Shown: positions 16,358-63,623 of the stretch, piece after piece
How positions within the stretch are numbered: position 1 is the stretch's first letter
Layout: each line of letters opens with the position of its first letter
From: an uncultured Bacteroidia bacterium
GTDB lineage: Bacteria; Bacteroidota; Bacteroidia; NS11-12g; UBA955
NCBI GenBank assembly: GCA_943789135.1
Contig: CALSSY010000004.1
Span: 62,726 to 126,725, forward strand
Direction of reading: 5' to 3'
DNA length: 64,000 nt
Position numbers and translations under genes: made by a program
The notes under the pieces: generated by a model
Told to the model about the DNA's origin: nothing
The model's database searches: none
What the model saw: only the letters and a program-made list of their open reading frames with translations

Positions 16358-16360
16358 AGA

Positions 16361-17647: not shown

Positions 17648-17665
17648 TCATAACAATTTTTCTAT

Positions 17666-17704: not shown

Positions 17705-17804
17705 GTTCAAAAAGTCGAATTTGACCTTTTAGATTGAATAACTTTATCTGCCTAATAAATCCCTGAAGCATAAGACTTCAGGAACTTTTGATTAAATTTA
17801 GACC

Positions 17805-40416: not shown

Positions 40417-40587
40417 TATAATGTTGTTGTTATCACAAAAATAAGGCCAATTAATAAGTTAAACGTAACGACTGCCTTCCTTAATTGTAAAATTTCCAGA
40501 AAATAACGCATCCGTTTATCGGGTATTCAATTAGTTAAACGAAGTAACAAACCATAATTTCAGGAGCCCATACTACCTTTGTTTTGA

Positions 40588-42330: not shown

Positions 42331-42353
42331 TTGTCGATATTAAGGGCATAAAC

Positions 42354-42395
42354 AGGAAACTTTAAAGCTAGCAAAAGTTTCCTACTCCTCTTTTT
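42354..42395 (+). terminator. rho-independent terminator of sppA
   Basis: 'aggaaacttt-aaagctagca-aaagtttcct' followed by 'ctcctcttttt'. Confidence 0.75.
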
Positions 42396-42412
42396 CCTAT
42401 TTTTGCGGCGGT

Positions 42413-44415: not shown

Positions 44416-44416
44416 C

Positions 44417-45559
44417 ATGAAAAACGCCATATTTTTTAGCGCCGCTCTTAGCGTCGTTTTCTTAGCCTCATGTGGAGGAGCCGAAAAAACCACAGATGCA
44501 CAAGCGCAGGAGGAATTGAAAAACATTCAATCACAAATTGCTGAATTACAAAAAAAAGAACAAGCTTTATTAATGCAAATTGGGGGCAATGAATCTGCTC
44601 GAACAAAATTAGTTGAAACCCAAACGGTCGCATTAGCAACATTTACCAATGACCTAACGGTAGAAGGAATGGTTGATGCGCAAAATAGCACCATCGCTAC
44701 CTCTAAGGTGCCAGCAACAGTTACCGCAATTTTAGTGAAAGTGGGTCAACAAGTAAGTGCAGGTCAAGCATTAGCCAAACTGGATAATACATCCCTTGTG
44801 CAAAGCAAACGCGAATTGGAACAACAGTATGACTTTGCTAAAACTTTGTATGAAAAACAATTAAGACTTTGGAAAAAAGGCGTTGGCACTGAAGTTCAGT
44901 ATTTAAGCGCAAAGAATCAAATGGAAGCTCTTGCAAAAAGTTTGAATACGCTGAACTCAAACATCGACATGTACACAATTAAGTCTCCTATTGATGGAAG
45001 TATTGAAGCTATTGATATCAAGATTGGTCAAGTTGCCGCTCCTGGAATGCCGTACTTTAAAGTTGTGAATGTTTCGATGATTAAGGCTGTAGCAGAAGTA
45101 TCAGAAGCTTATGCAGGAAGTGTCCATCAAGGAGATGACGTTGAAATAATTTTCCCAGATTTAGAGAAATCCATCAAAAGTAAAATTGGATTTGCGTCTA
45201 AATTCATAGATCCCTTAAACCGCACGTTCAAAGTTGAAATACCATTAATTGGTTTAAAAGATATAAAACCGAATATGATTGCTCGTTTGAAAATCACTGA
45301 ATATGAAAAGAACAACACGATTGTCGTGCCTTCTAATTGTGTTCAAGTAACAGAAAATGAAGCTTTTGTTATGGTTGCAAAAGAGATCGAAGGAAAAGTA
45401 GTGGCTCAAAAACAAATAGTGAAATTAGGTCTAGCCAATAAGAACTCAACAGAAGTTACAGAAGGTTTAGAAATTGGTGAAAATCTGATTATTAATGGAT
45501 TCCAGGAATTAGCCGAAGGACAAGTTTTGACAATAAAAAAGGCAACTGACAATGGCTAA
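44417..45559 (+). CDS. efflux RND periplasmic adaptor (membrane fusion protein) lipoprotein; the likely start is 'MKNAIFF'
   Basis: lipobox 'LASCGG'; HlyD/biotin-lipoyl/beta-barrel domains. Confidence 0.85.
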   Translation: MKNAIFFSAALSVVFLASCGGAEKTTDAQAQEELKNIQSQIAELQKKEQALLMQIGGNESARTKLVETQTVALATFTNDLTVEGMVDAQNSTIATSKVPATVTAILVKVGQQVSAGQALAKLDNTSLVQSKRELEQQYDFAKTLYEKQLRLWKKGVGTEVQYLSAKNQMEALAKSLNTLNSNIDMYTIKSPIDGSIEAIDIKIGQVAAPGMPYFKVVNVSMIKAVAEVSEAYAGSVHQGDDVEIIFPDLEKSIKSKIGFASKFIDPLNRTFKVEIPLIGLKDIKPNMIARLKITEYEKNNTIVVPSNCVQVTENEAFVMVAKEIEGKVVAQKQIVKLGLANKNSTEVTEGLEIGENLIINGFQELAEGQVLTIKKATDNG

Positions 45560-48500
45560 ATTCAAAGAATTCAAACCCACAAGTTGGAGTATTGACAATC
45601 GGACAAGTATCTACATACTGACAATATTCATCAGTATTGCGGGTATCTTTTCCTATATCAAGCTTCCAAAAGAACAGTTTCCGGATATCGTTATCCCAAC
45701 AATCTACGTTCAGACCATTTATCCAGGTTCTGCCCCTAAGGATATCGAAAACTTAATTACCAAACCCATTGAAAAGAAAATCGGGTCTATCTCAGGTGTA
45801 AAGAAATTAAAAAGTCAATCTTTACAGGATTTCAGTATCATCACGGTTGAATTTGGAACTGATGTTGATGTGGCCGTTGCGAAAAGCAAGGTTAAAGACG
45901 AAGTAGACAAGGCCAAACAAGATTTACCTTCCGATTTAAGAAACGATCCAACCGTTCAAGAAGTAAACTTCAGTGATATGCCAATCCTGTATGTTAATAT
46001 TTCTGGTGATTACAGTCTACAAGATTTAAAGCGTTATGCCGAACTGGCAAAAGACAGAATTGAATCCTTGTCCAGTATCACTCGAGTAGACATGGTGGGT
46101 GCATTAGATCGTGAAATGCAGGTTAATTTAAACTTGACCAAGATGATCGCTGCGGGCATTACGCTCGATGATGTTTCTAGGGCCATTCAATATGAAAATG
46201 CACGTATTTCCGGAGGAAACGTGGATATCGGCAATATGAAACGCTCCATTAGTGTTAGTGGTGAATTCAAAAATAAATTCGAACTTGAAAATTTAGTCAT
46301 ACGAGGTAATTTAGGCGCAACGCTCTATTTAAAAGACATTGCAGAAATCAAAGATGGATTCAAGGAAAAGGAAAGTTATGCGCGTTTAGAAGGAAAGAAT
46401 GTAATTACTTTAAATATCGTAAAGCGTGCAGGTGAAAACCTGATTGAAGCATCTGATAAATGCCGTGAAATTGTTGCCGAACTTAAAACCAACGGTCAAT
46501 ACCCAGAAAAATTAAATGTGGTATTTACCGGTGACCAAAGTACCAAAACAAGGACAACGGTTCACGACCTTATCAATACCATTATCATTGGTTTTATTTT
46601 GGTAACCCTCATTTTAATGTTTTTCATGGGTGCTACCAACGCCATCTTCGTTGGTCTTTCAGTTCCCCTCTCCTGCTTTGTTGCCTTTTTAATCATGCCA
46701 ACCATAGGGTTTAGCTTGAACTTCATTGTTTTGTTTTCATTTTTACTGGCTTTGGGAATTGTTGTTGACGACGCTATTGTTGTTGTTGAGAACACCCATA
46801 GAATATATCATGAAGAGAATATCAGCATAGTTAAAGCGGCCAAGAAAGCGGCAGGTGAAGTGTTCCTTCCCGTTTTTTCAGGAACTTTAACCACTTTAGC
46901 CCCATTTTTCCCTTTGGCATTCTGGCAAGGTGTCGTAGGTAAATTCATGTATTTCCTACCTGTAACCCTGATTATTACCCTTCTTGCTTCGTTATTGGTT
47001 GCTTACATAATCAATCCTGTTTTTGCTGTTGATTTTATGCAGAAAGACAGCAAGCCCGAAAAAGGAGCTTGGAAATCATCAAAATTTAGAAAAACGAGCA
47101 TTGTATTTGCTGTATTAACCCTTTTGGGATATGGAATAGGATTCGGAGTTGGTAATCTTATTTTGTTATTTTATCTGATATATGCTGTACATAAAGTTTG
47201 GTTAAAAGGTGTAATTTATCGCTTTCAAACACAAAGATGGCCAAAGGTTCAAAATGCATATAAAAACCTTATTGCATGGACCTTATCTGGAAAAAGATCC
47301 GCATTGATACTATTGTCTACCATTGGATTATTGATTTTTTCCTTTGTCATTACAGCAATCCGAAAACCAGGTGTAATTTTCTTCCCACAGGCAGATCCTA
47401 ACTTTACTTATGTGTATTTAACGCTTCCAGAAGGAACTAGCGCCAAACATACAGACAGCATTGTAAAAATTGCTGAAGAACGGGTATTTCAAATCCTTAA
47501 TACCAATCAAAACAGAGACTTGGTGGAAAGTGTGATATCCAACGTTGCTGTTGGAGCTACGGATCCCAATAGTGGTGATCGCTCCATTAAAAGTAATAAA
47601 GGAAAAATCACAGTAGCATTTACGGAATTTTCAGAACGAAACGGTAGAAGCACCCGTAAATTATTGGAAGATATCCGAGCGGGCTTAACCGATTTTGCCG
47701 GTGTGGAATTGGTAGTCGAGCAAGAAAGTAACGGGCCACCAGTAGGAAAAGCCATAAATATTGAAATTCGCGGTGATGAATTTGATATTTTGGTTAAAAC
47801 AGGTGCTGAATTAAAGCAATTCCTAGATGAAAAGAATATATCAGGTGTGGAAGAGTTGAAGAGTGACTTCATAAGCTCTAAACCAGAATTAATTGTTCAT
47901 ATTGACAGAGAACGCGCCAATCGATTTGGAATTAGCACCTCTCAAATCGGAATGGCATTAAGAAATTCTATTTTTGGTGCAGAGGCATCTAAATTCAAAG
48001 ATGCCAATGACGATTATCCCATTATGGTGCGCTTGGAAAAAGCAACGAGTAATGATCTGAATGAACTCCTCAACATGAGAATCACGTACCGTGATATGAT
48101 TTCAGGTGGTATGTTAAGACAAATTCCACTTTCTGCGGTTGCAGATGTGCGTTATAACAACACATTTGGAGGAATTAACCGTCTGAATCAAAAGCGTGTT
48201 ATTACATTATCGTCAAATGTACTTTCAGGATATGCGCCTAATGAAGTAGTTGCTAAGGTTACAGAAGCGATAAAACAATATGGACAACCAGAAGGATTAG
48301 AAATTGCCCTTACAGGAGAACAAGAGGAACAAGCAGAAACTGCAGCCTTCTTATCTACAGCTATGATGGCGGCAATTGCCTTAATTATTGTCATATTAGT
48401 TACCCAGTTCAATTCTATTTCTAAGCCGATAATTATTTTAAGTGAAGTTTTCTTCTCTGTGATTGGAGTGCTTTTAGGATTTGCCATTTTTGATATGGAT

Positions 48501-48956
48501 TTCTCAGTAATCATGAGTGGCGTCGGTATAGTGGCCTTGATAGGTATCGTTGTACGAAACGGTATTCTAATTGTAGAATTTGCCGACCATATGAGAAGTC
48601 AGGGAATGCCTTTGAAAGAAGCTTTGATTGAAGCAGGTAGAACGCGTATGACTCCCGTATTATTAACAGCTGCCAGTACTATACTGGGATTAATTCCATT
48701 AGCTGTTGGTTTAAATATGGATTTCGTAACCTTATTTTCTGAATTAAATCCTCATATTTTCTTTGGTGGAGATAGTGTTGCGTTTTGGGGGCCTTTAAGC
48801 TGGACCATGATTTTTGGTTTAGGTTTTGCAACCATACTCACATTATTCATCGTTCCCAACTTGTATTATCTAAATGAAAAGGTAAAAGCAAAAATTTATT
48901 CTTGGGTAGGTGTATCCTATAATCCAGACAAGGAATTAAGACCTGGTAAAAAGTAA
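45552..48956 (+). CDS. efflux RND transporter permease (AcrB/HAE1-like) with an ~90-aa C-terminal extension
   Basis: 12-TM AcrB architecture; 1134 aa. Confidence 0.9.
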   Translation: MAKFKEFKPTSWSIDNRTSIYILTIFISIAGIFSYIKLPKEQFPDIVIPTIYVQTIYPGSAPKDIENLITKPIEKKIGSISGVKKLKSQSLQDFSIITVEFGTDVDVAVAKSKVKDEVDKAKQDLPSDLRNDPTVQEVNFSDMPILYVNISGDYSLQDLKRYAELAKDRIESLSSITRVDMVGALDREMQVNLNLTKMIAAGITLDDVSRAIQYENARISGGNVDIGNMKRSISVSGEFKNKFELENLVIRGNLGATLYLKDIAEIKDGFKEKESYARLEGKNVITLNIVKRAGENLIEASDKCREIVAELKTNGQYPEKLNVVFTGDQSTKTRTTVHDLINTIIIGFILVTLILMFFMGATNAIFVGLSVPLSCFVAFLIMPTIGFSLNFIVLFSFLLALGIVVDDAIVVVENTHRIYHEENISIVKAAKKAAGEVFLPVFSGTLTTLAPFFPLAFWQGVVGKFMYFLPVTLIITLLASLLVAYIINPVFAVDFMQKDSKPEKGAWKSSKFRKTSIVFAVLTLLGYGIGFGVGNLILLFYLIYAVHKVWLKGVIYRFQTQRWPKVQNAYKNLIAWTLSGKRSALILLSTIGLLIFSFVITAIRKPGVIFFPQADPNFTYVYLTLPEGTSAKHTDSIVKIAEERVFQILNTNQNRDLVESVISNVAVGATDPNSGDRSIKSNKGKITVAFTEFSERNGRSTRKLLEDIRAGLTDFAGVELVVEQESNGPPVGKAINIEIRGDEFDILVKTGAELKQFLDEKNISGVEELKSDFISSKPELIVHIDRERANRFGISTSQIGMALRNSIFGAEASKFKDANDDYPIMVRLEKATSNDLNELLNMRITYRDMISGGMLRQIPLSAVADVRYNNTFGGINRLNQKRVITLSSNVLSGYAPNEVVAKVTEAIKQYGQPEGLEIALTGEQEEQAETAAFLSTAMMAAIALIIVILVTQFNSISKPIIILSEVFFSVIGVLLGFAIFDMDFSVIMSGVGIVALIGIVVRNGILIVEFADHMRSQGMPLKEALIEAGRTRMTPVLLTAASTILGLIPLAVGLNMDFVTLFSELNPHIFFGGDSVAFWGPLSWTMIFGLGFATILTLFIVPNLYYLNEKVKAKIYSWVGVSYNPDKELRPGKK

Positions 48957-48978
48957 AGGTTTGTTTAAGTTGATAGAT

Positions 48979-49010
48979 AAAGGCCACCCATGGGTGGCCT
49001 TTATTGTTAT
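48979..49010. terminator. bidirectional terminator: perfect 24-nt palindrome 'aaaggccacccatgggtggccttt' followed by a T tract
   Basis: read directly from the sequence, immediately after the RND stop. Confidence 0.75.
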
Positions 49011-49237
49011 ATATACATCAACAACGCTAGATACAATGTAATACCATTAATAAACACTGCTGTTCCCCCTTTACCTGCGAATCCATACAAACCACTGAAA
49101 ATTCAGACTCAAACCATGTAAAGTTTCACGTTACACGACTATCACAAAATCGATTCATGGAACATCGAAACCTGAATTTTATGGATTCAATAACGGTGAA
49201 TTTCATTATACGTATAATCCACAAAGGTATAAAACAG

Positions 49238-49270
49238 AAAAGCCACCCATAGGGTGGCTTTTCTGTTTGG
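49238..49270. terminator. bidirectional terminator 'aaaagccaccc-ata-gggtggctttt', related in sequence to the hairpin at 48979
   Basis: 11-bp stem with a 3-nt loop and U tracts on both sides; lies just 3' of the minus-strand gene 49283-50212. Confidence 0.7.
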
Positions 49271-49282
49271 TATTGATAATGA

Positions 49283-50212
49283 TTATCTAAGATTAAACGT
49301 ATTTTTTTGACGCAACAATCCGCGTGTCCAAAGTTCAGTGGTATATCTACCTTTCTTTAGTTTACCCGAAAGATTACCACGATCTGGGAATTTCCATTTT
49401 ACCTTTTGGAGTGCCCCATCAAAGGTTACTCCCTCTCTCAAAGTAAAAATGAGACTCTTATCTTTAAGGGTTTTGTTATTCACGGATAATACACCGCCAT
49501 CTGGATCAATCAAACGGATTGTAACCTCTTCATCAACAACTTCCGTTACCATTGGATTTTCCAAGATATCGAACGTAATAAGAAACTGATTTACTTTTTT
49601 CGCCTTATCAGCTATTTTCTTTTTCTTATCGTAAGCACTTGTTATAAGCGTACCAAATTGAGGTATTGCTCCACGCTCCAATCTCTCTTTTAATTCGGTA
49701 TTTTCAATACCCAAGGCCTCTTTTTCATTAACAGCTACTTCTTTATCCGCAACAGCCTGGTTACGCTCAATTATCAAGGTATCCAACTGAGCCGTCAAGT
49801 CTTTGATTTTTACCTTAGCATCTGCCAATTGCTTTCTAATTCCACTAAGATTTACATTTTTTGTATTTCTTTCAATATTGATATCTCCGCCTTCTCCAGT
49901 TGAAATTTGCACCAATTGACGACGCAATCTATTAACCTCTCTGTAAGCGGCAATAACTCGAGGATTATTAGGGCCTTCAAGTTCAGTAACCTTATTTACC
50001 AAGGAAGCATTTTCTTCTTGTAAGATCATAACTACGTTGTTAAGGGAGTCTTCAATTCGAAGAAGTTCGCGTTGTAAGGAGTCGCGCATTGCGACCAATT
50101 CAAGTTCTTTCTCAGCAATAGAGTCTTTGTTGTCGTAATACAAATAAGTATTTGTACCGGCTGATAACAGCAGAAGAATCAACAAAATAATGATTACACC
50201 TGTTCTTTTCAT
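49283..50212 (-). CDS. membrane-anchored coiled-coil protein with a C-terminal beta-rich domain (hypothetical)
   Basis: N-terminal TM 'GVIIILLILLLL'; about 180 aa of heptad-rich sequence. Confidence 0.5.
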   Translation of the reverse strand: MKRTGVIIILLILLLLSAGTNTYLYYDNKDSIAEKELELVAMRDSLQRELLRIEDSLNNVVMILQEENASLVNKVTELEGPNNPRVIAAYREVNRLRRQLVQISTGEGGDINIERNTKNVNLSGIRKQLADAKVKIKDLTAQLDTLIIERNQAVADKEVAVNEKEALGIENTELKERLERGAIPQFGTLITSAYDKKKKIADKAKKVNQFLITFDILENPMVTEVVDEEVTIRLIDPDGGVLSVNNKTLKDKSLIFTLREGVTFDGALQKVKWKFPDRGNLSGKLKKGRYTTELWTRGLLRQKNTFNLR

Positions 50213-50247
50213 GAAAATATTCTCTCTGCAATATTACACAATAATAA

Positions 50248-51570
50248 CTACTTATGTATAGTCTGAATATGTCTATGCAAATCACCAACATTATTTGAAT
50301 TGAAAATCAAATGTTTACGTTCATCCCAAAATAAGAATTGCGGTATTTGTTGCAATCTTAATTTTTCTGCTATACTGGAATTACAAAAGCCCTGAATTAC
50401 ATTTATGTCGTAGCGACGGTTGTAGTACGAAACATATTTACCACTGCCACCAAAATTTAAAAACACCCAATTTATTTCATTGTTGTATTTTCTACTTAAT
50501 TCATGGATATACGAAGAATCGCGAATGAAATCTTGATTTTCAGCACTCCAAATAACCAAAATGGTTTTTTTATCACCTATTTTCCTAGAATTTAAACGTC
50601 GTTGATTTTTCTCAGCTGTGCAAAATTTGAATCGGGGTAATACTGAACCGTTCAATAAACTTTTTTGCGTTTTATCACATTTTAATCTGGGAACAAGGGT
50701 AATTCGATTGGATAAATTACTTGTACTATCAAAACTTAATGAAAAAGCATATCCCAACCAAGCAAAGTTGGCATCTTTTCCAACAGCAACCTTATTCTGG
50801 GAGCTTAGCGTATTACTACTTCCTGGCGAAATCAACCATTGATCTATTCCAGCATCACTAAATTTCCCGTTTGAATTGGCGTCTAAAACGCCAATGAGAA
50901 GGGTATCACTTCTAAATAAGAAAGGTGCATATCGGATATTAACCCGTTCTACTTTAAATGAATTCCTAGTGCCAATAAAATTTCGACTCCCTTGCATTTC
51001 ACCAATAGACAAATCATTCATCTTAGAAAAGCGATAGAATTTATTTTCTGGAAAAACACGAATACGAACACCCGATGACAACCCATTTTCATCCGAAAAA
51101 GAAATCGGACCTTTCGATCTGCCTTTAACAAGAATTTCAGGTTTTTCATCCGTGAAATCCAAATTGTGATTTCTATCAAGCCATATTCTAACGCTTAATT
51201 TACGATGCCAATAATGACCACCTTCAATTAAAAATAAGATTCTTTTGGGTTCCCATACTGAAGATTCATGATGCTGAAAGAAATATCCATAACTCAAATC
51301 TCCTTCATGCTCAGGCACTTTAATTTGAATTGAATCCGCACTTTGATTGTAATCCGCACCGGCCAGATCTAAATAACCATGCACCCAATCACCATTAAGA
51401 GCAAATAAAGGCACTAAGCCCATTGAACTTTTACTCGCTAAATCCGTACCAATTGAATCCAAGGAAGCCTGAACCGTATAATCAGACTGAGCCAATTGAG
51501 GTAATTGAGCCGTTAACTGGCTGAAAAAAAGAAAGGATAAACCGTAAAAAAGTCTAATAAATTTCAACAT
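50248..51570 (-). CDS. secreted protein with a C-terminal thioredoxin-like (TlpA/redoxin-like) fold that lacks a CxxC motif
   Basis: signal peptide; C-terminal 'KKTILVIWSAENQDF...WVFLNFGG' resembles a redoxin fold with 'WSAEN' where WCxxC would sit. Confidence 0.45.
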   Translation of the reverse strand: MLKFIRLFYGLSFLFFSQLTAQLPQLAQSDYTVQASLDSIGTDLASKSSMGLVPLFALNGDWVHGYLDLAGADYNQSADSIQIKVPEHEGDLSYGYFFQHHESSVWEPKRILFLIEGGHYWHRKLSVRIWLDRNHNLDFTDEKPEILVKGRSKGPISFSDENGLSSGVRIRVFPENKFYRFSKMNDLSIGEMQGSRNFIGTRNSFKVERVNIRYAPFLFRSDTLLIGVLDANSNGKFSDAGIDQWLISPGSSNTLSSQNKVAVGKDANFAWLGYAFSLSFDSTSNLSNRITLVPRLKCDKTQKSLLNGSVLPRFKFCTAEKNQRRLNSRKIGDKKTILVIWSAENQDFIRDSSYIHELSRKYNNEINWVFLNFGGSGKYVSYYNRRYDINVIQGFCNSSIAEKLRLQQIPQFLFWDERKHLIFNSNNVGDLHRHIQTIHK

Positions 51571-51573
51571 TTT

Positions 51574-51729
51574 TTATTTACAAAATCGCACGAACATCAC
51601 GATAATAGCAAATAAAAACATGAAAATAGAAATCTTGTTGATACCGTGCATCATCCTAAGATTGAAGTTGGGCTTATCCCCTTTCGTCTTTTTAAAGGAG
51701 AGATACTCCCATATCTTTTTTAAGATCAT
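51574..51729 (-). CDS. 51-aa tail-anchored small membrane protein (MILKKIWEYLSFKKTKGDKPNFNLRMMHGINKISIFMFLFAIIVMFVRFCK). It is not in the ORF track because it is under 60 aa
   Basis: translated by hand; it sits 14 nt after the lon stop and 4 nt before the next gene's start, so tight operon spacing supports it. Confidence 0.35.
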   Translation of the reverse strand: MILKKIWEYLSFKKTKGDKPNFNLRMMHGINKISIFMFLFAIIVMFVRFCK

Positions 51730-51742
51730 GCTCAAATATAGT

Positions 51743-54118
51743 TTATTTGGACTTTCTGGATGATAAATCTATCGGATTCTTTACTTTTTCGTCAGTTAAG
51801 GCTAAATCCAATACTTCAAACATGTTATTGACAAAATGAAAAGACATTCCTTCAACGTAGTCCGGCTTTATATCTAATATGTCTTTTTCATTTTGTTTAC
51901 AAAGTATCACCTCTTTAATGCCAGCGCGTTTTGCCGCTAATATTTTCTCTTTGATACCGCCAACGGGTAAAACTTTACCTCTAAGTGTTATTTCTCCCGT
52001 CATTGCCAATTTATTCTTCACTTTTCTTTGGGTAAACAACGAAGCAAGAGCGGTTAGTATCGTTACACCAGCAGATGGTCCATCTTTAGGAATTGAACCC
52101 GCAGGAAAGTGAATATGGACATTCCATTGATCAAAAATCGCCGTATCCAATTCTAAATATTGAGCATGTGCCTTTAAAAAAGTATGCGCCAACGAAGTAC
52201 TTTCCTTCATCACTTCACCTAACTGACCTGTAACTTTCAATTCGCCTTTACCCGGAGTCAATGTGCTTTCTACAAAGAGTACACTTCCACCCATAGGGCT
52301 CCAAGCTAAACCAGCAACAACACCTGCTGTTTGATTGTTTTCGTATAATTCGGGTTCTAGCTTTTCAGGTCCTAAAATGGTTTCGATTTCACCTTGACTT
52401 AATGTTTTCTTATAGGATTCTCCTGACGCCTCTTGTTTAGCGGAAGCACGGGCAAGCGATGCTATTTTCTTTTCGAGGCCACGAACTCCACTTTCTCTGG
52501 TGTACTGTTCAATTATTAATTGCAGGCCGGCATCTGAAATTTTAAATTGAGTGCTTTTTAATCCGTGGGCTTTTCTTTGCTTGGGAATTAAATAGGTTTT
52601 TGCAATTTGTAATTTCTCTTCAACACTATATCCATGCAAATCGATAATTTCCATACGATCAAGTAATGCAGGTTGTATCGTATCCAAAGAATTGGCAGTA
52701 GCGACGAATAAGACTTTACTTAAATCGTAATCGTATTCTAAATAGTTATCGTAAAACGTGGCATTCTGTTCAGGGTCTAAAACCTCTAAAAGTGCAGAAC
52801 TTGGATCGCCTCGAAAGTCACGACCTAATTTATCAATTTCATCAAGCACAAAAACGGGATTTGAAGAACCCACCTTCTTGATATTTTGAATTACTCTGCC
52901 TGGCATGGCTCCTATATAGGTTTTACGGTGTCCACGAATCTCAGACTCATCATGAAGTCCTCCGAGACTCATTCGAACATATTTTCTACCTAATGCTCTA
53001 GCGATACTCTTCCCTAATGAAGTTTTACCTACACCTGGAGGTCCATGTAAACAAATAATCGGGGATTTCAAATCACCTTTAAGCTTAAGCACCGCCAGAT
53101 ATTCAAGTATACGAACCTTTACTTTATCCAATCCAAAATGATCTTCATCAAGTACTTTAGCGGCCCTAATTAAATCAAAATTATCATCGGTAAAGGTATC
53201 CCAAGGAAGGTCCAAAAGCAATTGAACATAGTTCAATCCCACAGAATAATCAGGTGAGGCGGGATTGATACGCCCCAATCGATCTAATTCTTTGTTGAAG
53301 TGTTCGCGAACCTCTTTCTTCCATGATTTCTTCGGCACCCTTTTAAGGCGTAGGTTTTCTATTTCCTTATCGGGCGATTCCGCGCCCAACTCCTCTTGAA
53401 TAGCTCGCATCTGCTGATGCTAGAAAATACTCTCGCTGTTGCTTGTCGATATCGGTTCTGAACCTTACTCTGAATTTGATCTTTCAATTCCAGCATCTGC
53501 AACTCCTTCGTGACATGCTCTAAGTACTCGGTGGGCTCTTGCACTTTGGTGAGATAAGACTCCAGATATTTCTTGCTTCTCGCCTACTGGAATATTCAGG
53601 TTTGATGCCACAAAGTGAATTAAGGAAACACACTCGAGTCAATATTCCGAATGGCAATCGAGGCCTCCGATGGAATGTTCGGTGACAAGTTGATGATATT
53701 ATTGGAAATATCCTTAATGCTGTCTATAATCGCTTTATACTCCTTGTCTTCTTTGAATGTCAAGGTCGGGATAATGCCGATACCTCCGCCTTCATGTAGG
53801 GCTCGGCTTGGGTTAGAGTCTCCTAACTTGCACGCGTCGCTTTACCTTGAATAATCACCGTTGTGGTTCCATCGGGCATGCGCATCAATTTGATGATTAT
53901 CTTAGCCAATACCCCAATAGCATAAACATCCTGCCAACCCTGGATCTTCTACCTCGGCGTTTCTTTGGGAAACTACGGCGATGGTTTTGTCTCCCTTGCT
54001 CGGCGTCTTTGATCAGTTTGATGCTCTTATCCCGGCCGACGGTTATTGGGAAAATCACCCCTGGAAACAATACCGTATTCTTTATGGCCAAGACGGGAAG
54101 TTCGCTGGGAATTTCCAT
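51743..54118 (-). pseudogene. lon: ATP-dependent Lon protease. The C-terminal 555 aa (AAA+ and S16 protease) are intact; the N-terminal ~250 aa (LON substrate-binding domain, 53410-54118) are broken by at least four frameshifts
   Basis: Walker A 'GPPGVGKTS' and catalytic 'PKDGPSAG' are in ORF 51743-53410; the N-terminus 'LPVLAIKNTVLFPGVIFPITVGRDKSIKLIKDA' is in ORF 53897-54118, and intervening fragments sit in other frames. Confidence 0.75.
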
Positions 54119-54440
54119 TTTATTGCTCTCGTCTTCTTCCTGCTTTCGAAAACAACGGCAAGAAACTCCGGCGTTCCGTCTACGTTATCCTCCTCATTCA
54201 TAAAGTCAAAGAAGGTCTCTTTCTGTTTAAACATCTCTTTTCGTATTATTCAAGGCTTATGCCAAACTGCAAATATCCACGAAAAACTAAAACAATTGAC
54301 CCTAAATTCTCTTTATTTCCCCTTTAGTGTCAGTATATCCGCCATTTTGACACATACAAAGAAAACAAAAGGCGACACAAAACTTTCATTTGCAATTGTT
54401 GTATAAATTGGGGAATTTGCACCCACAAAAATAAATTAAA

Positions 54441-55301
54441 ATGAAACATATGAATTTAAAAACTTGGATGTTGCTGTTGCCTTTATCCGCAATGGCGTTA
54501 TTGTCCTCTTGTGGAGGAGAAGAAGAGGTTCCAAAGCCTACCGCATCTATCACCATAACGGGCGATAAGATTTCGGGTAACGAAGTAGAGGTAGTATCCG
54601 ATATTGTTATTACTGCTTCTGCAACAGCGGGTTCAGAAAGTTTAAAGTCAGTTAAATTTTCAGTTAAAATTAACGGAGCTGCTGCTATCACTGTTTTGGA
54701 TACGGCTGTTATAAGCAAAAGCTTTACGGTAGTATCTCCTACAACAGCCTTGGGTTCAACCGGTGATGATGTGGAATACATTGTAACTGCGATGGATGCA
54801 AATGGAACTGAAGCAAGTGCAAGTACTAAATTATCTGTGGTTCCCAAATTATTGAGTTTGGATGGATCTGCGAACCAGATTGTTTACAACTCAAATGCGC
54901 AAGGACAAAATATCGCTTATGATTTGGTCGCTGGATTTGCATTGGCAAAAGGTTCGGCTCCTATCGATCAAGACATCAAAGATGCAACTGGTGCAACCGA
55001 GGTTCAGTGGTCTAAGAAATGGACTTCTGGAAACGGAACCAAGTTTATAAAAATCACTGCTAACGACTGGAACAATTCACGCAGCACCACTTATCTTTAC
55101 AACTTATATAAAGCCAATAAAGACAAAATGACTACCGAAATCACTTTCGAAGAAAAAGATGTGATTTTAGCTAAATCAACTCAGGATGTTGAATTTAACA
55201 TTTATATAATTCAAATCGACAAGGTAACCGATTTGCCTGCCGTTGGAAATAACAACGATTTCGCACAGTTTAGCGTGAAAGGAATCAATTATCCCAAATA
55301 A
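54441..55301 (+). CDS. lipoprotein with an Ig-like/Thr-Ala-rich region (hypothetical)
   Basis: lipobox 'LLSSCGG'; 286 aa. Confidence 0.5.
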   Translation: MKHMNLKTWMLLLPLSAMALLSSCGGEEEVPKPTASITITGDKISGNEVEVVSDIVITASATAGSESLKSVKFSVKINGAAAITVLDTAVISKSFTVVSPTTALGSTGDDVEYIVTAMDANGTEASASTKLSVVPKLLSLDGSANQIVYNSNAQGQNIAYDLVAGFALAKGSAPIDQDIKDATGATEVQWSKKWTSGNGTKFIKITANDWNNSRSTTYLYNLYKANKDKMTTEITFEEKDVILAKSTQDVEFNIYIIQIDKVTDLPAVGNNNDFAQFSVKGINYPK

Positions 55302-55330
55302 TAATCAAACTATTTTTGGTATTATTTACA

Positions 55331-55358
55331 AAAGCCCTCGACGATGTCGGGGGTTTTT
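55331..55358 (+). terminator. rho-independent terminator of the lipoprotein gene
   Basis: 'ccctcgac-gat-gtcggggg' (one G.U pair) followed by 'ttttt'. Confidence 0.65.
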
Positions 55359-55393
55359 GCTTATTTTGAACTTTCATTCAAAGATCGAATCAA

Positions 55394-56378
55394 GTGGAAT
55401 CAAATATTAAGAAGATTGCTGTCTTTACTTCAGGTGGAGACGCCCCCGGAATGAATGCCTGTGTGAGAGCAGCCGTGCGTACTTGTATATATTTTGGCAT
55501 AGATGTCTACGGCATAACCGGTGGTTATGACGGCATGATAAACAACCGTATTTCTCCCATGTCAGCATCTAGTGTTGGGAATATCATTCAGTACGGTGGT
55601 ACCATACTTAAATCAGCGCGTTCAAAGGAGTTTCGCACACCCGAGGGTCGCAAAATTGCCTATGATAACCTAAAATCTCACAATATTGATGCACTTGTGG
55701 CTATCGGTGGAGACGGAACCTACACGGGAGCCTTGAAATTCTCAGAAGAATACGGCATTCCCGTTATCGGATGTCCAGGTACCATCGACAATGACTTAGC
55801 CGGCACTGATTACACCATTGGATTCGATACCGCCACAAATACAGCCGTAGATGCAATCGATAAAATTCGCGACACAGCCGATGCGCACAATCGTGTGTTT
55901 TTCGTGGAAGTGATGGGGAGACATTCGGGACACATCGCGTTAAATGCAGCATTAGCAGGTGGAGCCGAAGGGGTTTTTATTCCGGAAAAAGAAAACGAAT
56001 TTGAAGATTTGATTAGTTTTCACAAGAACAAAAGAAGAGAGAAGCAATTCTCCATTTTTGTGGTTGCCGAAGGCGATGAACAAGGCCGTGCATATGGCAT
56101 TGGCAAATGCCTATCAGCAACATTTCCCTGAAGCAGATACACGCGTTACCGTTTTAGGCCATATTCAACGAGGCGGTAAACCAAGTGCCAATGATCGAAT
56201 CTTGGCTTCAAGATTAGGAGCACATGCGGTGAAGGGACTAATAGAAGGTAAAAAAGGAGTTGCAGTAGGCGTCATTAACCACGAAATCGTATTTACCAAA
56301 TTTGAAGAAGCCATTTACGGTAAAAAAGAAATAAGTGAAAATCTTTGGATTATGAACGGCATTTTAACCCGTTCGTAA
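55394..56378 (+). CDS. pfkA: ATP-dependent 6-phosphofructokinase, interrupted by a 1-bp insertion at about 56093
   Basis: '[12 protein letters not shown]' and 'GGDGT' motifs; frame A ends '..EGDEQGRA' and frame B continues '[28 protein letters not shown]'; the extra 't' is in 'gcaTatggc'. Confidence 0.8.
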
Positions 56379-56390
56379 AATACCAAAACC

Positions 56391-58052
56391 ATGCTCAAGC
56401 GCCTGCTGATATCACATTATGCACTCTTGGACCATTTAGAAATGGAACTTACAGAAGGCATGACTACCATCACCGGAGAAACCGGTGCAGGTAAATCAAT
56501 ATTACTGGGAGCAATTGGACTCATTTTAGGGCAACGGGCCGACACAAGTGTTGTTTCAACCGGTCATGAAAAGTGCATAATTGAGGGACATTTCGATATT
56601 AAGAAATTATCGCTTCAAGATTTTTTCGAAACCCAAGATTTGGATTACACCGATATTTGTATTTTTCGGAGGGAAATATCCAAAACAGGTAAATCGAGGG
56701 CTTTTATTAACGATACCCCAGTAACTTTGCCAGTGCTAAAGGAATTGGGGAGCCAATTGGTCGAAATCCAAACCCAACATACGAGCCACATGATGGCTCA
56801 AACGGATGTTCAACGTGAATTACTCGATGCGCTATTAATAAACCCTTCGATCCTCGAAAATTATAAAAAGAGTTTCGAACGATTCGAAACGACTTCGAGG
56901 TTGTTATCAGACTCAGAAAACCAATTAAAAAACATCATTAAAGAACGCGATTTTAATCAGTTTCAACTACAGGAAATTCAAATTCTCAAATTACTAGAAG
57001 GCGAAGAAACCTCGATTGAACAAGAAATAAATACCTTATCGCAAGCCGAAGAAATCAAAGAACATTTCAGCCAAGTGGCAATCGGCTTATCCGATGGCGA
57101 ACTAAATGTTCGCAGTTTAATTGGACAATTATATAATTTGATAAAAACATTTGAAGATTTAAAACCGGAGTTTGCAGATTTTAAACAACGATTAAAATCG
57201 ATATCAATTGAGGTTGATGACTTAGCCAACGAAGCAATTAATATTTCTGAAAAAACAGAGCAAAATCCCGAGCGATTGTTTGAGCTTAACGAACGTTTTG
57301 ATAAAATACAACAATTATTACGTAAACATGGGGTTAATACTTGTGTCGAACTACTAGAAATTGCCGAAGCGCTTCAAAAACACCTTTCTTCCACTGAAAC
57401 ACTCGAGAATACAATTGAAAAATTGCGAACTGAGCTGTCGGATTTAAAAACAACATGTACCTATCTCGCAAAAAATCTGCATCTCGAACGAATAAATGCC
57501 GGTGAAGAGTTATCGAACAAGTCCGTTGAAATTTTGAAGAAATTAAACATGCCTTACTCGCAGGTTGGCTTTGAAATTGAATTGAATCTAGATCAGATGA
57601 ATACTTTCGGGGCCGATGAAATCAAACTCTTGTTTACCGCAAATCCTGGAACCCAACTTCAAGCAGTTAGCGAAATTGCATCTGGGGGTGAATTATCCCG
57701 TTTAAATTTCGCTTTTAGAAGTATCATTTCCGAAAAGAAATTGCTCCCAACCCTTATTTATGATGAAGCAGATACAGGAATCAGTGGCGAAGTGGCAGCC
57801 AAATTGGGGCATTTATTTCGAGAATTGGGTAAGCGGCACCAAATTTTATGCATTAGCCATTTGCCACAGGTTGCCGCAGCAGGCAATCAACAATGGGAGG
57901 TGGTAAAGGTTCAAGACGCCAATAGCACGCGCAGTGAGGTTCGTTATTTAAACGAATCCGAACGTCCGTTAAGTATTGCTAAAATGCTTTCAGGTTCCGA
58001 AATGACGGAAGCAGCTATGAATCATGCCGCTCATTTACTATCGGGACATTAA
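56391..58052 (+). CDS. recN: DNA repair protein RecN
   Basis: Walker A 'GETGAGKSIL', coiled-coil middle, C-terminal signature; 553 aa, intact. Confidence 0.9.
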   Translation: MLKRLLISHYALLDHLEMELTEGMTTITGETGAGKSILLGAIGLILGQRADTSVVSTGHEKCIIEGHFDIKKLSLQDFFETQDLDYTDICIFRREISKTGKSRAFINDTPVTLPVLKELGSQLVEIQTQHTSHMMAQTDVQRELLDALLINPSILENYKKSFERFETTSRLLSDSENQLKNIIKERDFNQFQLQEIQILKLLEGEETSIEQEINTLSQAEEIKEHFSQVAIGLSDGELNVRSLIGQLYNLIKTFEDLKPEFADFKQRLKSISIEVDDLANEAINISEKTEQNPERLFELNERFDKIQQLLRKHGVNTCVELLEIAEALQKHLSSTETLENTIEKLRTELSDLKTTCTYLAKNLHLERINAGEELSNKSVEILKKLNMPYSQVGFEIELNLDQMNTFGADEIKLLFTANPGTQLQAVSEIASGGELSRLNFAFRSIISEKKLLPTLIYDEADTGISGEVAAKLGHLFRELGKRHQILCISHLPQVAAAGNQQWEVVKVQDANSTRSEVRYLNESERPLSIAKMLSGSEMTEAAMNHAAHLLSGH

Positions 58053-58083
58053 TAGATGTGAAGGAATTTTAATGCTTATTATC

Positions 58084-58558
58084 CTATGATTGCGTTATCT
58101 TTTCGTATTCATAATCGCGGTTTATTGCATTGTTTTTTGCGGCTTGTGTAGCAAGAAAATCGCAACGTTCATTTTCAGGCACTCCGGCATGACCCTTGAC
58201 CCAATTGAAATTTAATATGAAACGGTTTTGAAACCTTGAGATATTCTAACCAAAGATCCACATTCTTTACATTTTTGAATCCTTTTTTCACCCAATTACC
58301 AAGCCAGTTTTTGGAAATTGCATCACATACATATTTTGAGTCTGTGTAGATAGAAACCGGAATCTCGGGTTTATTTATTTGCCGTAACGCCACAATCACA
58401 GCCAAAAGTTCCATCCTATTGTTGGTGGTTAAAACAAATCCTTCGGATAATTCTTTTCGATGCTTCCCGTAAATTAAAACAGCACCGTATCCCCCAGGAC
58501 CTGGATTTCCCAAAGCAGCACCATCCGTGTAGATTATGATATCCGACATATCTAGCAA
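58084..58558 (-). CDS. rnhA: ribonuclease HI with a 1-bp insertion at about 58205 that shifts the last ~40 codons
   Basis: '[17 protein letters not shown]' N-terminus; the frame ends '..HIKFQ', and the +1 frame continues '[18 protein letters not shown]...' down to a TAG at 58084. Confidence 0.8.
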
Positions 58559-58609
58559 ACTTATGTCCTTTATTTCGGTGTGCGTAAAAAAAGGATTAAC
58601 GCCCTGTGG

Positions 58610-59867
58610 ATTTCGATACTTTTGCAGATATGGATATTGAAGTAATCACCATTGGCGATGAATTACTAATCGGTCAAACGAGTGGATACCAATAGCGTCT
58701 ATCTTGCGCACAGGTACTTGCCCCGTTGGGCCTTGAATATTTCAAGAAAGACGTGCAATTACGCGATCACCAAGGAAGCCATTATTTCCTCCTTAAACGA
58801 GGGATCGTTTACTCGTGTGGATTTCTAATTATCGTAACTGGGGGTTTAGGTCCTACCAATGACGATATAACCAAATCCGTTCTTACAATCCTATTTCCAA
58901 TTGCGGAACCCGAATTGATCATTCTGTATTGGAACATTTAAAAGTAATTTTCAAAGATCGTGACCCGCAATTGTTTGAGATTAATAAAATGCAGGCGAAT
59001 CTGCCCGATGTGCTGAAACACTTTTTAATTCACAGGGAACAGCACCCGGAATGTGGTTTGAGCGAAATGGCAAATATTTGGCGGCAATGCCCGGTGTACC
59101 AGGTGAAGTAAAAGCCATCACCGAAGAGTCACTTATTCCTAAAATAAATGCGCTTTTCACACTCCCCTCTACCCTTCATAGAACGCTTACTACCGCGTTA
59201 ATTCCTGAGAGCCTAATTTCTCAAAAATTACAAAATTTCGAATCAAATATACCCGGTTGCGGTCTTGCGTATTTACCAAGTCACAATATGGTTAAATTGC
59301 GATTAACCCGCTTGGACCCCAATTTGCCAATTGAAACTTTTAACTCTCATTGGGAATTACTAAAGAATGAATTGGGTGATTGGATTTTTTGTGCCCAAGA
59401 CCTAAGTATGGCTGAATGGGTTATTCAAACAGCTAAAGACCATTCATTGAAAATTGCAACGGCCGAAAGTTGTACAGGTGGTTTTATCGCCAACCAAATC
59501 GTTCAAGTTACTGGTGCATCCTCCGTTTTTTTAGGAAGTATTGTAGCTTATGACAACAGTGTCAAAAACTGATTTACTCGGAGTTAATCCCGAAACCATT
59601 GAAAAACATGGTGCTGTAAGTCCAGAAGTTGCAGTCCAAATGGTGGAAGGCGTATGTGCTAAATTGAATTCCGGTATTGGAATCGCCACGACAGGAATTG
59701 CAGGTCCGACAAATGGTACCACCGAAAAGCCAACGGGTACAATATATATTGCAGTAAAGTTCAAGAATGAAATAACCGTCCAAAAATATGTCTTACGTGG
59801 GGGTAGATTGGACTTCATGATTCGAGCCATGAATTCTGCGATGAAACAACTAAAAGAATTGCTTTGA
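58610..59867 (+). pseudogene. cinA: competence/damage-inducible protein CinA, broken by at least four frameshifts
   Basis: 'ITIGDELLIGQT' N-terminus at 58610, and 'VTGGLGPTNDDITK', 'MWFERNGKYLAAMPGVPGEV' and the C-terminal CinA domain 'TAESCTGGFIANQI' spread over ORFs 58726-58941, 58929-59111, 59051-59572 and 59550-59867. Confidence 0.75.
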
Positions 59868-59914
59868 TTTACTCTTCGGATAAGGATTAAGCGTTATCTT
59901 TGTGTTTCATATTT

Positions 59915-61451
59915 ATGACTGAAAAAATCCTCATTTATGACTTTGGATCTCAATACACCCAGTTGATAGCCCGAAGATTGCGTGAAATTAATGTTTATTG
60001 CGAAATCCATCCTTTTAACAGTGAAGTAAAGCCTGATGAAATAACCAAAGGTGTTATTCTTTCAGGAAGTCCGTGTTCAGTTAATGATGAAAATCCTCCT
60101 CAAATTGACTTAATGTCTTTATTTGAAAAAGTGCCCGTACTCGGCGTTTGCTATGGAGCTCAATATATGGCAAAAATGGCCGGCGGTCAGGTTGATAAAA
60201 GCAATCATCGCGAATACGGACGTGCCAAGATGCTTCAAACAGGTATCAGCAATGATCTTCTCGATGGTTTGAGTTATGAAAGTCAAGTTTGGATGAGTCA
60301 TGGTGATACCATAGGTACCTTACCCAATGAATTTGAAATCATTGCCAAATCAGATTCTATTCCCGTTGCCGGATTTAAATGGAACGGACAACCCAATCCG
60401 GTGTATGGTATCCAATTCCACCCTGAGGTGTATCACAGCACGGAAGGATTGGATTTATTGAAAAACTTTGCATTGAATATTTGCGATTGTAAAGCAGATT
60501 GGACCCCAGGACATTTCATCAACGACACCGTTTCAAGTTTAAGAGAAACTCTCGGTGATGACAAAGTTATATTGGGTCTTTCTGGGGGTGTGGATAGTTC
60601 AGTTGCTGCAGCCTTATTGAATCAGGCAATTGGTGATAATCTTACGTGTATATTCATCGATAATGGTCTTCTCAGAAAAAATGAGTTCCAAGAAGTTCAA
60701 GAAAATTATAAAAGTATGAACTTGAATTTATTGGCAATTGATGCATCTGAAGAATTTTATCAGCGAATTGGCCGGAAAAAGCGATCCTGAAGAAAAAAGA
60801 AAAACCATTGGACGTGTTTTCATTGAGGTTTTTCAACGAGAAGCCGCTAAAATTAAAGGAGCTTCTTGGCTCGCTCAAGGAACCATTTATCCAGATGTTA
60901 TTGAAAGCGTAAGTGTCAACGGTCCCTCAGTTACGATAAAATCGCACCACAATGTTGGTGGATTGCCTGAGAAGATGAATTTAAAGGTTATTGAGCCTTT
61001 ACGTGCATTATTCAAGGATGAAGTGCGTAGAGTGGGTAAGGCGATGAATTTAGGCCATACACTACTTGGTCGACACCCATTCCCGGGGCCCGGCCTTGCA
61101 ATTCGTATTTTGGGCGATATTACTCCCGAGAAAGTGGCATTATTACAAGAAGCAGACTATATTTATACTCAGATATTAAGAAAAACAGATTGGTACGATA
61201 AAATTTGGCAAGCAGGAGCTATTTTATTACCTGTGCATAGTGTTGGTGTTATGGGAGATGAAAGAACATACGAACAAGTTGTTGCTTTGCGTGCAGTAAG
61301 CAGTACTGACGGTATGACAGCAGATTGGGTTCACATCCCTTACGAAATACTTGCTGAAATTTCAAATTCAATCATCAATCAAGTAAAAGGAATCAATCGC
61401 GTGGTTTACGATATTAGCTCAAAACCACCTGCAACTATTGAATGGGAATAA
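59915..61451 (+). CDS. guaA: GMP synthase (glutamine-hydrolysing), interrupted by a 1-bp insertion at about 60758 in a T4 run
   Basis: GATase 'GVCYGAQ', ATP-PPase '[10 protein letters not shown]'; frame A '..DASEEF' then frame B '[15 protein letters not shown]...' to the C-terminal 'IEWE'. Confidence 0.85.
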
Positions 61452-61453
61452 AA

Positions 61454-62564
61454 TGAAACTAAAATCGCGCCTTTTTTTAGCTTTATGCATCTTTTGCTTA
61501 AAAAGTGAACTCGTGCACAAGCACCAATCAATCTGAATGTGGGCGTACTCCTTCCCTTCTACAGCGATACAACATCATCACTTTCTCAACAGCAAATTTC
61601 ACAAGCCGCTTTGGATTATTATGCAGGTTTGAGAATTGCCGCTGAAGATTTAAACAAATGGAATGTTTCAATAAACTTGAGAGTTTGGGATCTTCAAAAG
61701 ATGAGCGATTCTGCGCTAATTTTACTGCCTAAAAGCGCGGAATTTCAATCATTAGACATATTTTTTGGGCCTATAACACAGAAGCCTGTTGATCTAATTT
61801 CTACCAACCTTCAACAAACAGATTTTCTATGGGTTTCGCCACTTACCAATCTTAAACTTCCAAAAATTGTTCAGAATGTCAACTTTTTCGGTCATGACTC
61901 ACTGAGAATAAAAGGTCTTGTTAATCAGTTAAAATTATCATATCCAGAACATACGTTTTGCCTAATAGTAGACAAGAAGAATCAATCTCTTGTAAAGTAT
62001 TACAAGAAGGAACTTAAAAAAGCTAAGATTGCTTATACCGAACATTTTGTATCTGGGAATAAAGTAAGTCCTAGAATAACAACAAAGACAGAATCATTGA
62101 TTTTACTTAATGTTGGAACGAGTTCTTTCAGCCGTTTGGCACAGTTTTCAAATGTTTCTAGAAAAGTAGATAGCTATATTGTAGGAGATTTTAACTGGTT
62201 TGACGATTTGTCCGCAGCTGAAGAGATTGATGAAACAAAAATCATCTACCCCAGCATGAATTTTATTAGTGGCCTCGACAGTTCTGCTCTTCGATTCACG
62301 GAAACATTTATTAAAACCGAACGCGCAGAACCAAGCAAGTTTGGATTTCAAGCATACGATCAATTAACCTTTTTAGGCGGACTTTTTGCAACTAATGGTC
62401 GTTTGGATTTAAATGATTTACCAAACGCACGATACAACGGATTGATCAATACTTTTGAATTGAAAAGATCGCACCCGCGTACTTTTGTTAATCAAGGTAT
62501 TCGTTTGATTAGAAACGAAAAGATTGAACTTGCCCCCGTTGAAGAGGACGAAACGACAAAATGA
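61454..62564 (+). CDS. periplasmic substrate-binding-protein-like hypothetical protein; its N-terminal signal-peptide region (61454-61540) is in a different frame from the main ORF
   Basis: an ATG at 61454 gives 'MKLKSRLFLALCIFCL', then shifts into '..AQAPINLNVGVLLPFYSD'. Confidence 0.4.
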
Positions 62565-63610
62565 TTTCGAGGCGACATCCCCGACATTATAATCAAGCCG
62601 TAAAAATTATTGAGGCTTACGATGGCAAAACACCATTTCCCATATACTTAAGCAATATTTTTAGGCAGAATAAAAATTGGGGAAGTAAGGACCGTAAATC
62701 CTACCGAGAACTTTGTTATTTGATTTTAAAAAACTTCCGACTATTTGAACATTCAGAGAATCCAATAGATTTACTACTTCAACTCGATTCAGATAGTTCT
62801 GACATATGACTTAGAACCCTATTTGGATTTACATTCGTTTATTTCGATACATTAATATAAACCAATTAGGTACATGGTTTCAACATATCCACCCACTTTC
62901 TATTACTCTTGGGAATTCGATTCTAGTTTATTGAATTTACAAGCCCGTTTGTTACCCGATATTCAAACTTGGATATTCGAAAAACAACCAAGCTTAAATT
63001 CGTTAATTGAAAATGGTAAAGGCATAATACAAGACATAGCGAGTACTCAAGTCATACAGTATTATTCGAATTATTTTACATCAAAGAGAGTTTGGGATTG
63101 TTGCGCTGGGGCCGGTGGAAAAGCACTAATGATTGCGCATTTAACTTCTCCATCAGAATTAATTTGTAGCGATATTCGACCACAAATTTTAGAAAATCTA
63201 AAATCGCGTTTTGAACTCAACCGAAAAAAAACTCCACAACTAGAGTAATCGACGTATCCAATACCCGATTCGAAATTACAGATATCCAACCCGAAATTAT
63301 TTTTGCAGATGTCCCATGCAGTGGAAGCGGCACATGGAGAAGGAATCCAGAAGTTTTAAAATACTTTGACGTTTCTAAAATAAACCATTTCAAACAACGT
63401 CAAAAACATATTCTTGGAACGCTCTCAACGTTAGGTTCAGCTGAATACATCATTTATTGTACGTGTTCAATCTTCAAAGGAGAAAATGAAGAGGTTATTT
63501 CAGAGTTTTTAAAAGAGAATTCGCAATTCCGCTGCGAAAGCATGATGTATCACGGTGAAATAGAGATACGGAAAATGTCCGTGGTGATTATTTATTCAGT
63601 GCTCTATTAA
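62561..63610 (+). pseudogene. RsmB/Sun-family SAM-dependent rRNA (cytosine-C5) methyltransferase, fragmented into 62561-62809, 62874-63248 and 63250-63610
   Basis: SAM-binding 'DCCAGAGGK' and catalytic 'DVPCSGSGTWRR' motifs lie in different frames. Confidence 0.6.
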
Positions 63611-63623
63611 AGCGCCATGTAAT

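Follow-up and report, generated by a model that had tools for sequence, protein, structure and literature searches.

Interrupted core genes on an uncultured Bacteroidia contig are probably artefacts of an in-silico composite of two co-occurring populations

We analyzed a 64,000-nt stretch of a contig from an uncultured Bacteroidia bacterium (hereafter, the window) in which the genes pfkA, rnhA, guaA, lon and cinA, a lipoprotein gene and an rsmB-like methyltransferase gene are interrupted by frameshifts. Comparison with contigs assembled independently from short reads of other runs (Logan, ENA and JGI) leads us to conclude that the window is very probably an in-silico composite of two co-occurring Bacteroidia populations, and that its broken genes are assembly artefacts and not the result of decay. 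A preliminary description of this DNA had favored sequencing insertion/deletion (indel) error over gene loss. The attribution to artefact holds, as the lesions occur in a single assembly and the genes are intact elsewhere, but the proposed homopolymer cause does not, and the dominant contribution of chimeric blending had been missed.

The RecN protein of the window has exact matches on eight other contigs (L001–L008), which define lineage A and derive from Logan assemblies of the ERR14949xxx and ERR9769279 runs and from JGI 3300004097. Lineage B (L017–L026) was retrieved through a look-up of the 440-aa protein encoded at 50248–51570, and its downstream references, L027 and L028, were reached through P0001, a homologue of the lipoprotein. 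The reference panel comprised the 8 lineage-A contigs, more than 12 lineage-B contigs (L017–L028) and a set of more distant relatives (L009–L012); in a scan of species-representative genomes, the top match was a Bacteroidia metagenome-assembled genome (MAG) with 90% RecN identity. The two lineages are colinear in this region at ~77% DNA identity and were found together in the same runs, namely ERR14949474 (L007 and L020) and ERR9769279 (L006 and L022). Where the lineage-A contigs reach the genes in question, Lon (822 aa), PfkA (327 aa), RecN (553 aa), RnhA (154 aa) and CinA (429 aa) are uninterrupted, as are the downstream GuaA (511 aa), lipoprotein (371 aa) and RsmB-like protein (357 aa). Lon (822 aa), PfkA, RecN and RnhA are likewise all intact on the lineage-B contigs L017–L026 (RnhA, 153/154 aa across lineages), and L027/L028 encode intact GuaA (511 aa), lipoprotein (370 aa), RsmB-like protein (354 aa) and FabH, together with a CinA that is unbroken but cut by the contig end (402 aa in L027). 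No recombinant or frameshifted contig was present among the independent lineage-A and lineage-B contigs.

Two side observations concern these references. In runs ERR14949474 and ERR9769279, the Logan lineage-B contigs (L020 and L022) stop at 55358 and the lineage-A contigs (L007 and L006) begin at 55330. The resulting 29-base overlap upstream of pfkA is presumably a shared k-mer at a graph branch, and it illustrates how easily A and B can become tangled during assembly. In addition, L010 (CAMBBZ010000020.1) belongs to a MAG labelled 'Chitinophaga pinensis'; its gene neighbourhood is only ~71% identical and it stands beside unclassified Bacteroidia MAGs, and the species label looks doubtful.

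Sliding comparisons resolved the window into a B–A–B mosaic, in which identity follows lineage B to ~53.2 kb, lineage A over 54.2–58.5 kb and lineage B again from ~59.0 kb. Against lineage A, to which L001 belongs, identity was ~77% over 46–53 kb and 59–64 kb and ~100% over 54.2–58.5 kb, and both flanks of the A block appeared as graded transitions rich in insertions found only in the window; between 53.2 and 54.2 kb, identity to B declines while identity to A climbs. The B sequence to the left is clean, with 30 substitutions, 0 insertions and 0 deletions relative to L017 over 40465–53200, and the segment at 59.0–64.0 kb is >99% identical to L027/L028. The lineage-A block contains a hypothetical 286-aa gene, pfkA, recN and rnhA (Table 1). 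Over 55330–58525 it is 99.8% identical to L007, from which it differs by 5 substitutions and by exactly 2 inserted bases, of which pfkA and rnhA carry one each. The recN gene shows 4–6 DNA differences from the lineage-A contigs, every one of them synonymous. We also considered lineage-A bleed-through as the source of window-specific substitutions in the B block, many of which equal A alleles; this interpretation was dropped, as ancestral polymorphism explains them equally well.

Three-way alignments of the two joins flanking the A block (zones 1 and 2; Table 1) showed that A and B alleles alternate at intervals of a few bases, with extra bases wherever both alleles were retained side by side. 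Zone 1, anchored at 53284–54214, measures 931 nt in the window versus 908 nt in each parent, corresponding to 23 extra bases, and the two parents align here without gaps at 208 differences. Zone 2, anchored at 58500–58984, measures 485 nt versus 469/470 nt in the parents (~15 extra bases). The insertion:deletion counts relative to the parents were 24:1, 23:0, 16:0 and 15:1 across the two zones. In zone 1, the sequence switches parent 83 times over 202 informative sites in 920 bp, or approximately every 11 bp. Because the blended zones add these spurious bases, lon and cinA are shredded: a tblastn search with an intact orthologue placed the pieces of lon, which lies just beyond the region covered by the preliminary description, in two reading frames.

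To quantify the blending, we used a dynamic-programming union test in which every base of both parents must be consumed once: an aligned pair contributes one of its two bases, and an unaligned base is written out as it stands. For zone 1, the union of A and B left 0 unexplained bases, compared to 49–55 with a single parent and 41–56 when one parent was swapped for a third lineage (L010–L012) or for a randomised pseudo-parent. The same test left 0 unexplained bases in zone 2 for the union of A and B, and 27–33 for a single parent.

The choice of allele within the joins tracks the base and not the parent. A fixed priority of C>G>T>A was obeyed at 173 of 202 sites in zone 1 (p ~1e-26) and at 78 of 91 in zone 2 (p ~1e-12), and the bias extends to the pairs A/T, resolved to T in 47 of 55 cases, and C/G, resolved to C in 16 of 18. 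Substitutions up versus down this order numbered 82:4 and 74:3 against the two parents in zone 1, and 30:1 and 30:4 in zone 2; outside the zones, the corresponding counts were symmetric (12:13, 36:30, 8:4 and 15:19). A forward simulation that combined global alignment, a rule that a base beats a gap and the C>G>T>A priority recovered 98.4% of zone 1 and 96.9% of zone 2. Separately, a mild upward lean was seen outside the zones against near-identical references, at 58:30 versus L079 (8426–15400, p=0.004) and 21:9 versus L017 (40465–53200, p=0.04), which hints that pieces of strains from the same lineage were merged under the same tie-break rule.

A third zone (zone 3; Table 1) displays the same signature. 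Close references for 1576–18797 (L063, L079 and L106) were obtained by a metagenome scan with DnaE. Relative to L063, insertions in zone 3 outnumber deletions by 74 to 1, and 146 of its 158 substitutions run up the C>G>T>A order (146:12). Its histidine kinase, response regulator and flavoprotein genes are shredded in the window and intact in L063.

We then compared the single-base lesions in pfkA, rnhA and guaA with near-identical contigs, which confirmed the earlier statement that each gene carries exactly one extra base. The lesions split pfkA into open reading frames (ORFs) at 55394–56131 and 56058–56378, rnhA into ORFs at 58558–58175 and about 58236–58087 on the minus strand, and guaA into ORFs at 59900–60790 and 60738–61451. 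The identity and placement of the extra bases differed from the earlier assignment, which had an extra T in all three genes (at ~56093, ~58205 and, within a T4 run, ~60758) and placed two of the three lesions in T homopolymers. None lies in a T run. At the pfkA site, lineage A reads GCATAT-GCATTG and the window GCATATGGCATTG, such that the extra base is the G in TAT[G]GCA; the true protein reads GRAYALANAYQ, and orthologues have GRAYALA instead of GRAMALA. At the rnhA site, the plus strand reads AATT-AAATTT in A, AATT-GAATTT in B and AATTGAAATTT in the window, which has the lineage-B G at 58207 next to the lineage-A A; the true protein is KFNWVKGH, and orthologues have KFNWVKG instead of KFQWVKG. 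At the guaA site, the sequences are TTTTAT-CGAGAA in A, TTTTAT-AGCGAA in B and TTTTATCAGCGAA in the window, the T4 run is conserved across all relatives and the true protein reads EEFYSELAGK. Removal of one base yields a PfkA identical to that of L001 at 327 of 327 positions, an RnhA identical to the lineage-A protein at 154 of 154 and a GuaA identical to that of L027 (lineage B) at 509 of 511. The isolated insertions of the window fall in runs of 2, 1, 1, 1, 1, 2, 6 and 3 bases, the three flagged sites accounting for runs of 2, 1 and 1, so that only 1 of 8 lies in a run of at least 4. At 2 of 6 insertions (58207 and 60761), the extra base matches the allele of the other lineage, which may be due to chance and is a hint at most.

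The remaining three genes carry further damage, and the ORF map shows cinA and the rsmB-like gene broken into several fragments. cinA contains about 14 insertions within 58630–58935 in addition to its isolated lesions (Table 1), well above the at least four shifts noted before, and the rsmB-like gene, described as having at least two, contains 7 indels, of which two are insertions (G at 62801 and C at 63615) and five are deletions (62846, 62850, 62888, 63240 and 63565). Both genes are intact in both lineages, which argues against the suggestion that they had genuinely decayed. The reported interruption of the lipoprotein gene was borne out as well and traced to a single missing base. Its N-terminus is out of frame in the window by tblastn, and the repaired form is identical to the L027 protein at 365 of 370 positions; a Pfam search of the lipoprotein matched no family. 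L027 and L028, which originate from different runs, concur against the window at every shared indel site. Isolated indels are unevenly distributed, with 11 in 59–64 kb versus 0 over the 12.7 kb at 40.4–53.2 kb, and this contrast between blocks is consistent with a patchwork assembled from source contigs that differed in quality.

Exact-sequence look-ups found the truncated products PfkA (245 aa), GuaA (291 aa), Lon (555 aa, reaching into zone 1) and RnhA (124 aa) on one NCBI/ENA contig of 190,095 bp only. The CinA (173 aa), RsmB (124 aa) and DUF58 (113 aa) fragments and two zone-3 fragments were restricted to the same contig. The repaired PfkA is present on 31 contigs and the repaired RnhA on 11, and the sequence clusters of the fragments include full-length Lon (822 aa), RsmB (354 aa, on many contigs), DUF58 (301 aa) and GuaA (511 aa). 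The deposited record of this contig, from which the window comes, already holds the lesions as plain A/C/G/T. As a separate observation, short CinA products of 218 and 155 aa (P0081 and P0082) occur on two other ENA contigs (79,141 and 53,800 bp) and share a 90% cluster with the 173-aa CinA fragment of the window; sibling assemblies may carry damage of a similar kind.

Table 1. Blocks, blended zones and genes of the window discussed in the text (positions in the 64,000-nt window; aa, amino acids)
Feature	Position	Strand	Remarks
Blended zone 3	3181–5000		Same signature versus L063; histidine-kinase, response-regulator and flavoprotein genes
DUF58 gene	17805–18710	+	301 aa in L106 and many other contigs; inserted T at 18139, compensating deletion at 18330
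Clean lineage-B block	40465–53289		~99.8–100% identical to independent B contigs; 0 indels
lon	51746–54234	-	822 aa in relatives; N-terminal third wrecked by zone 1
Blended zone 1	53290–54210		Putative overlap of left B piece and A piece, within lon
Lineage-A block	54211–58537		~99.8–100% identical to A contigs, ~75% to B contigs
pfkA	55394–56378	+	One extra G at 56096/56097; TATGGCA versus TATGCA in relatives
recN	56391–58052	+	Intact; protein identical to lineage A
rnhA	58084–58549	-	One extra base at 58207, G on plus strand (C on gene strand)
Blended zone 2	58538–58935		Putative overlap of A piece and right B piece; rnhA start, intergenic spacer and cinA 5' end
cinA	58630–59867	+	Zone-2 insertions, deletion at 59010, inserted C at 59563
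guaA	59915–61451	+	One extra C at 60761, TTTTAT[C]AGCGAA
Lipoprotein gene	61453–62564	+	370 aa; one G missing at 61512, in signal peptide
rsmB-like methyltransferase gene	62561–63622	+	354 aa in lineage B; 7 indels

Together, these data display the features of an overlap-merge chimera: intact and colinear parents, a full union longer than either parent and a mismatch rule that depends on the base. We propose that a lineage-A piece of ~5.65 kb (53290–58935) was merged at each end with a lineage-B piece, the overlaps lying in lon on one side and at the 5' end of cinA on the other. At each overlap, the software would have aligned the two divergent ends and written out a two-sequence consensus. 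If a base always beats a gap in this consensus, each pair of gaps opened by the aligner would leave both alleles in tandem; mismatches would be decided by the fixed priority, which on this strand is C>G>T>A, the outcome to be expected if ties are broken by running through the bases in the order A,T,G,C. Blending of this kind would account for the 23 and ~15 spurious bases and the shredding of lon and cinA, with 3181–5000 as a probable third overlap. The exact union of two clean sequences seen in the blends leads us to infer an overlap merge at the level of contigs rather than another form of two-sequence consensus. The single-base lesions in pfkA, rnhA, guaA, the lipoprotein gene and the rsmB-like gene would represent additional indel errors, either carried by the lower-quality pieces or introduced into them.

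Several points weigh against this interpretation. The evidence for it comes from comparisons between assembled contigs. Among the isolated indels in 59–64 kb, 7 of 11 are deletions, and the union model makes none; as the union process never deletes bases, the isolated deletions need a second source of error. A search of 80 metagenome loci did not yield the second parent of zone 3. Exact look-ups of the 286-aa, 179-aa, DnaE and 278-aa products returned no match, and 1–1576 and 18.8–40.4 kb are therefore without a close reference, although no heavy damage is visible in their ORF structure. Finally, the repaired GuaA and lipoprotein, with the window's own substitutions, have no exact match elsewhere, and the comparison is thus with strains that are 99.5% identical.

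A related explanation keeps the mixture of A and B but moves the error to the level of reads: a noisy long-read or hybrid assembly of both populations, polished with reads of both, could leave a hybrid consensus where the lineages switch and residual indels in other places. The two lineages do share sequencing runs, and the isolated indels, which run in both directions and cluster in 59–64 kb with none in 40.4–53.2 kb, resemble uneven polishing. A pile-up of noisy reads, however, should not yield an exact union with 0 novel and 0 lost bases; nor would a near-deterministic base priority or a 1-in-8 share of isolated insertions in homopolymers of at least 4 be expected, and we regard this explanation as unlikely. 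Still less probable are ordinary sequencing indels, mainly in homopolymers, within an otherwise genuine sequence of a single organism. The lesions are single-base and missing from near-identical contigs, and the insertion at 13179 does extend an A5 run, but the bases inserted at the flagged sites (G, G and C) lie in runs of only 1–2, and the B–A–B switch, with blended joins that explain most of the lon and cinA frameshifts, contradicts ordinary indels as a complete explanation.

Biological explanations fared worse. Homologous recombination could in principle have brought ~4.3 kb from A into lineage B, with mosaic joins from heteroduplex repair and reductive loss of lon, pfkA, rnhA, cinA, guaA and rsmB, and the B–A–B mosaic with its GC-ward allele choice superficially resembles recombination with GC-biased repair. 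Repair, however, cannot insert 23 and ~15 bases by retaining both alleles in tandem, and GC-biased conversion does not predict the strand-asymmetric preference for T over A and C over G. The parent switch approximately every 11 bp, the independent A and B contigs that are never recombinant or frameshifted and the restriction of the lesions to one contig argue in the same direction. There is also no sign of relaxed selection, since the repaired PfkA and RnhA are identical to intact forms and all recN changes are synonymous, and we consider this scenario highly improbable. A more limited version, in which a lineage-B cell truly imported a 4.3-kb pfkA–recN–rnhA segment from A, the junctions were garbled by the assembler and the isolated indels are errors, is very unlikely, though somewhat less so; if true, it would represent a very recent exchange of core genes between populations. 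The preliminary description had also raised programmed frameshifting. Restoration of PfkA, RnhA and GuaA by +1 ribosomal frameshifting or transcriptional slippage would find nothing in its favor beyond the single extra base per lesion: the sites (TATGGCA, AATTGAAA and TTATCAGC) lack a conserved shift motif, the orthologues in A, B and L009–L012 are single ORFs without the extra base, and dozens of similar lesions are present on the contig. We assign this possibility a negligible likelihood.

Other parts of the window carry further lesions. The DUF58 gene carries an insertion and a compensating deletion (Table 1), and the insertion at 13179, in the spacer between 13070 and 13217, is an extra A (A5 to A6) that is absent from L079 and L106 and constitutes the sole isolated insertion in a homopolymer of at least 4. 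A FAD-oxidase-like gene at 943–2292 is in three pieces (943–1128, 1137–1469 and 1435–2292), a glycosyltransferase-like gene at 5566–6437 is in two (179 and 100 aa, versus a 290-aa ORF in L063), and isolated indels relative to L063 occur at about 2200–2900 and 5000–6600. At 34049–36524, an ORF of 752 aa that encodes a TonB-dependent receptor Plug domain overlaps one of 143 aa that lies in a different frame and matches no Pfam family; a further frameshift may lie close to the 3' end of the receptor gene. Overlapping ORF pairs at 25.7/26.1 kb and 72/589 were rejected as frameshifts, as Pfam identified separate genes. A reference-free scan for low A and high C as a detector of blends was dropped because it was confounded by gene-strand effects.

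Chimeric contigs that join strains or species occur in metagenome assemblies and MAGs, including through secondary merging with overlap-layout-consensus tools. The window resembles them in combining two co-occurring relatives in one contig, with the parents found separately elsewhere and the joins located in conserved genes. Chimeras from de Bruijn graphs typically change parent abruptly where the two share a k-mer, whereas the window contains blends of 0.4–1.8 kb in which all parental bases are kept and a fixed base priority applies, and the overlaps accepted were merely ~77% identical. False pseudogenes induced by indels are likewise a known problem of error-prone long-read assemblies; as in the window, single-base indels split housekeeping genes and are gone in accurate assemblies of the same organism. 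In the window, however, the insertions lie mostly outside homopolymers, the error density is 0 over 12.7 kb and then high in adjacent blocks, and the worst-hit genes owe their damage to blending and not to read noise. Natural recombination mosaics and GC-biased gene conversion share with the window a foreign block in a colinear backbone and favored G/C alleles at the joins, but the extra bases, the rapid switching, the choice of T over A and C over G, and the absence of the recombinant from independent samplings set the window apart. Similarly, reductive genomes such as those of obligate symbionts contain many frameshifted conserved genes; in the window, the population at large lacks the lesions, repair yields proteins identical to intact ones and 12.7 kb of clean sequence alternates with shredded stretches.

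The lesions of the window are thus not a biological feature, and their value is as a quality warning on a public assembly. The signature can be screened for, as the combination of insertion-only, exact-union blends of two relatives, a fixed base priority and lesions restricted to one contig, and could be applied to contigs of the same project. Taken at face value, the contig would falsely imply that this organism has lost glycolytic PfkA, GMP synthase, RNase HI and Lon, that it carries a high pseudogene load, and that it recently took part in a 100%-identical gene transfer between populations with GC-biased mosaic junctions.

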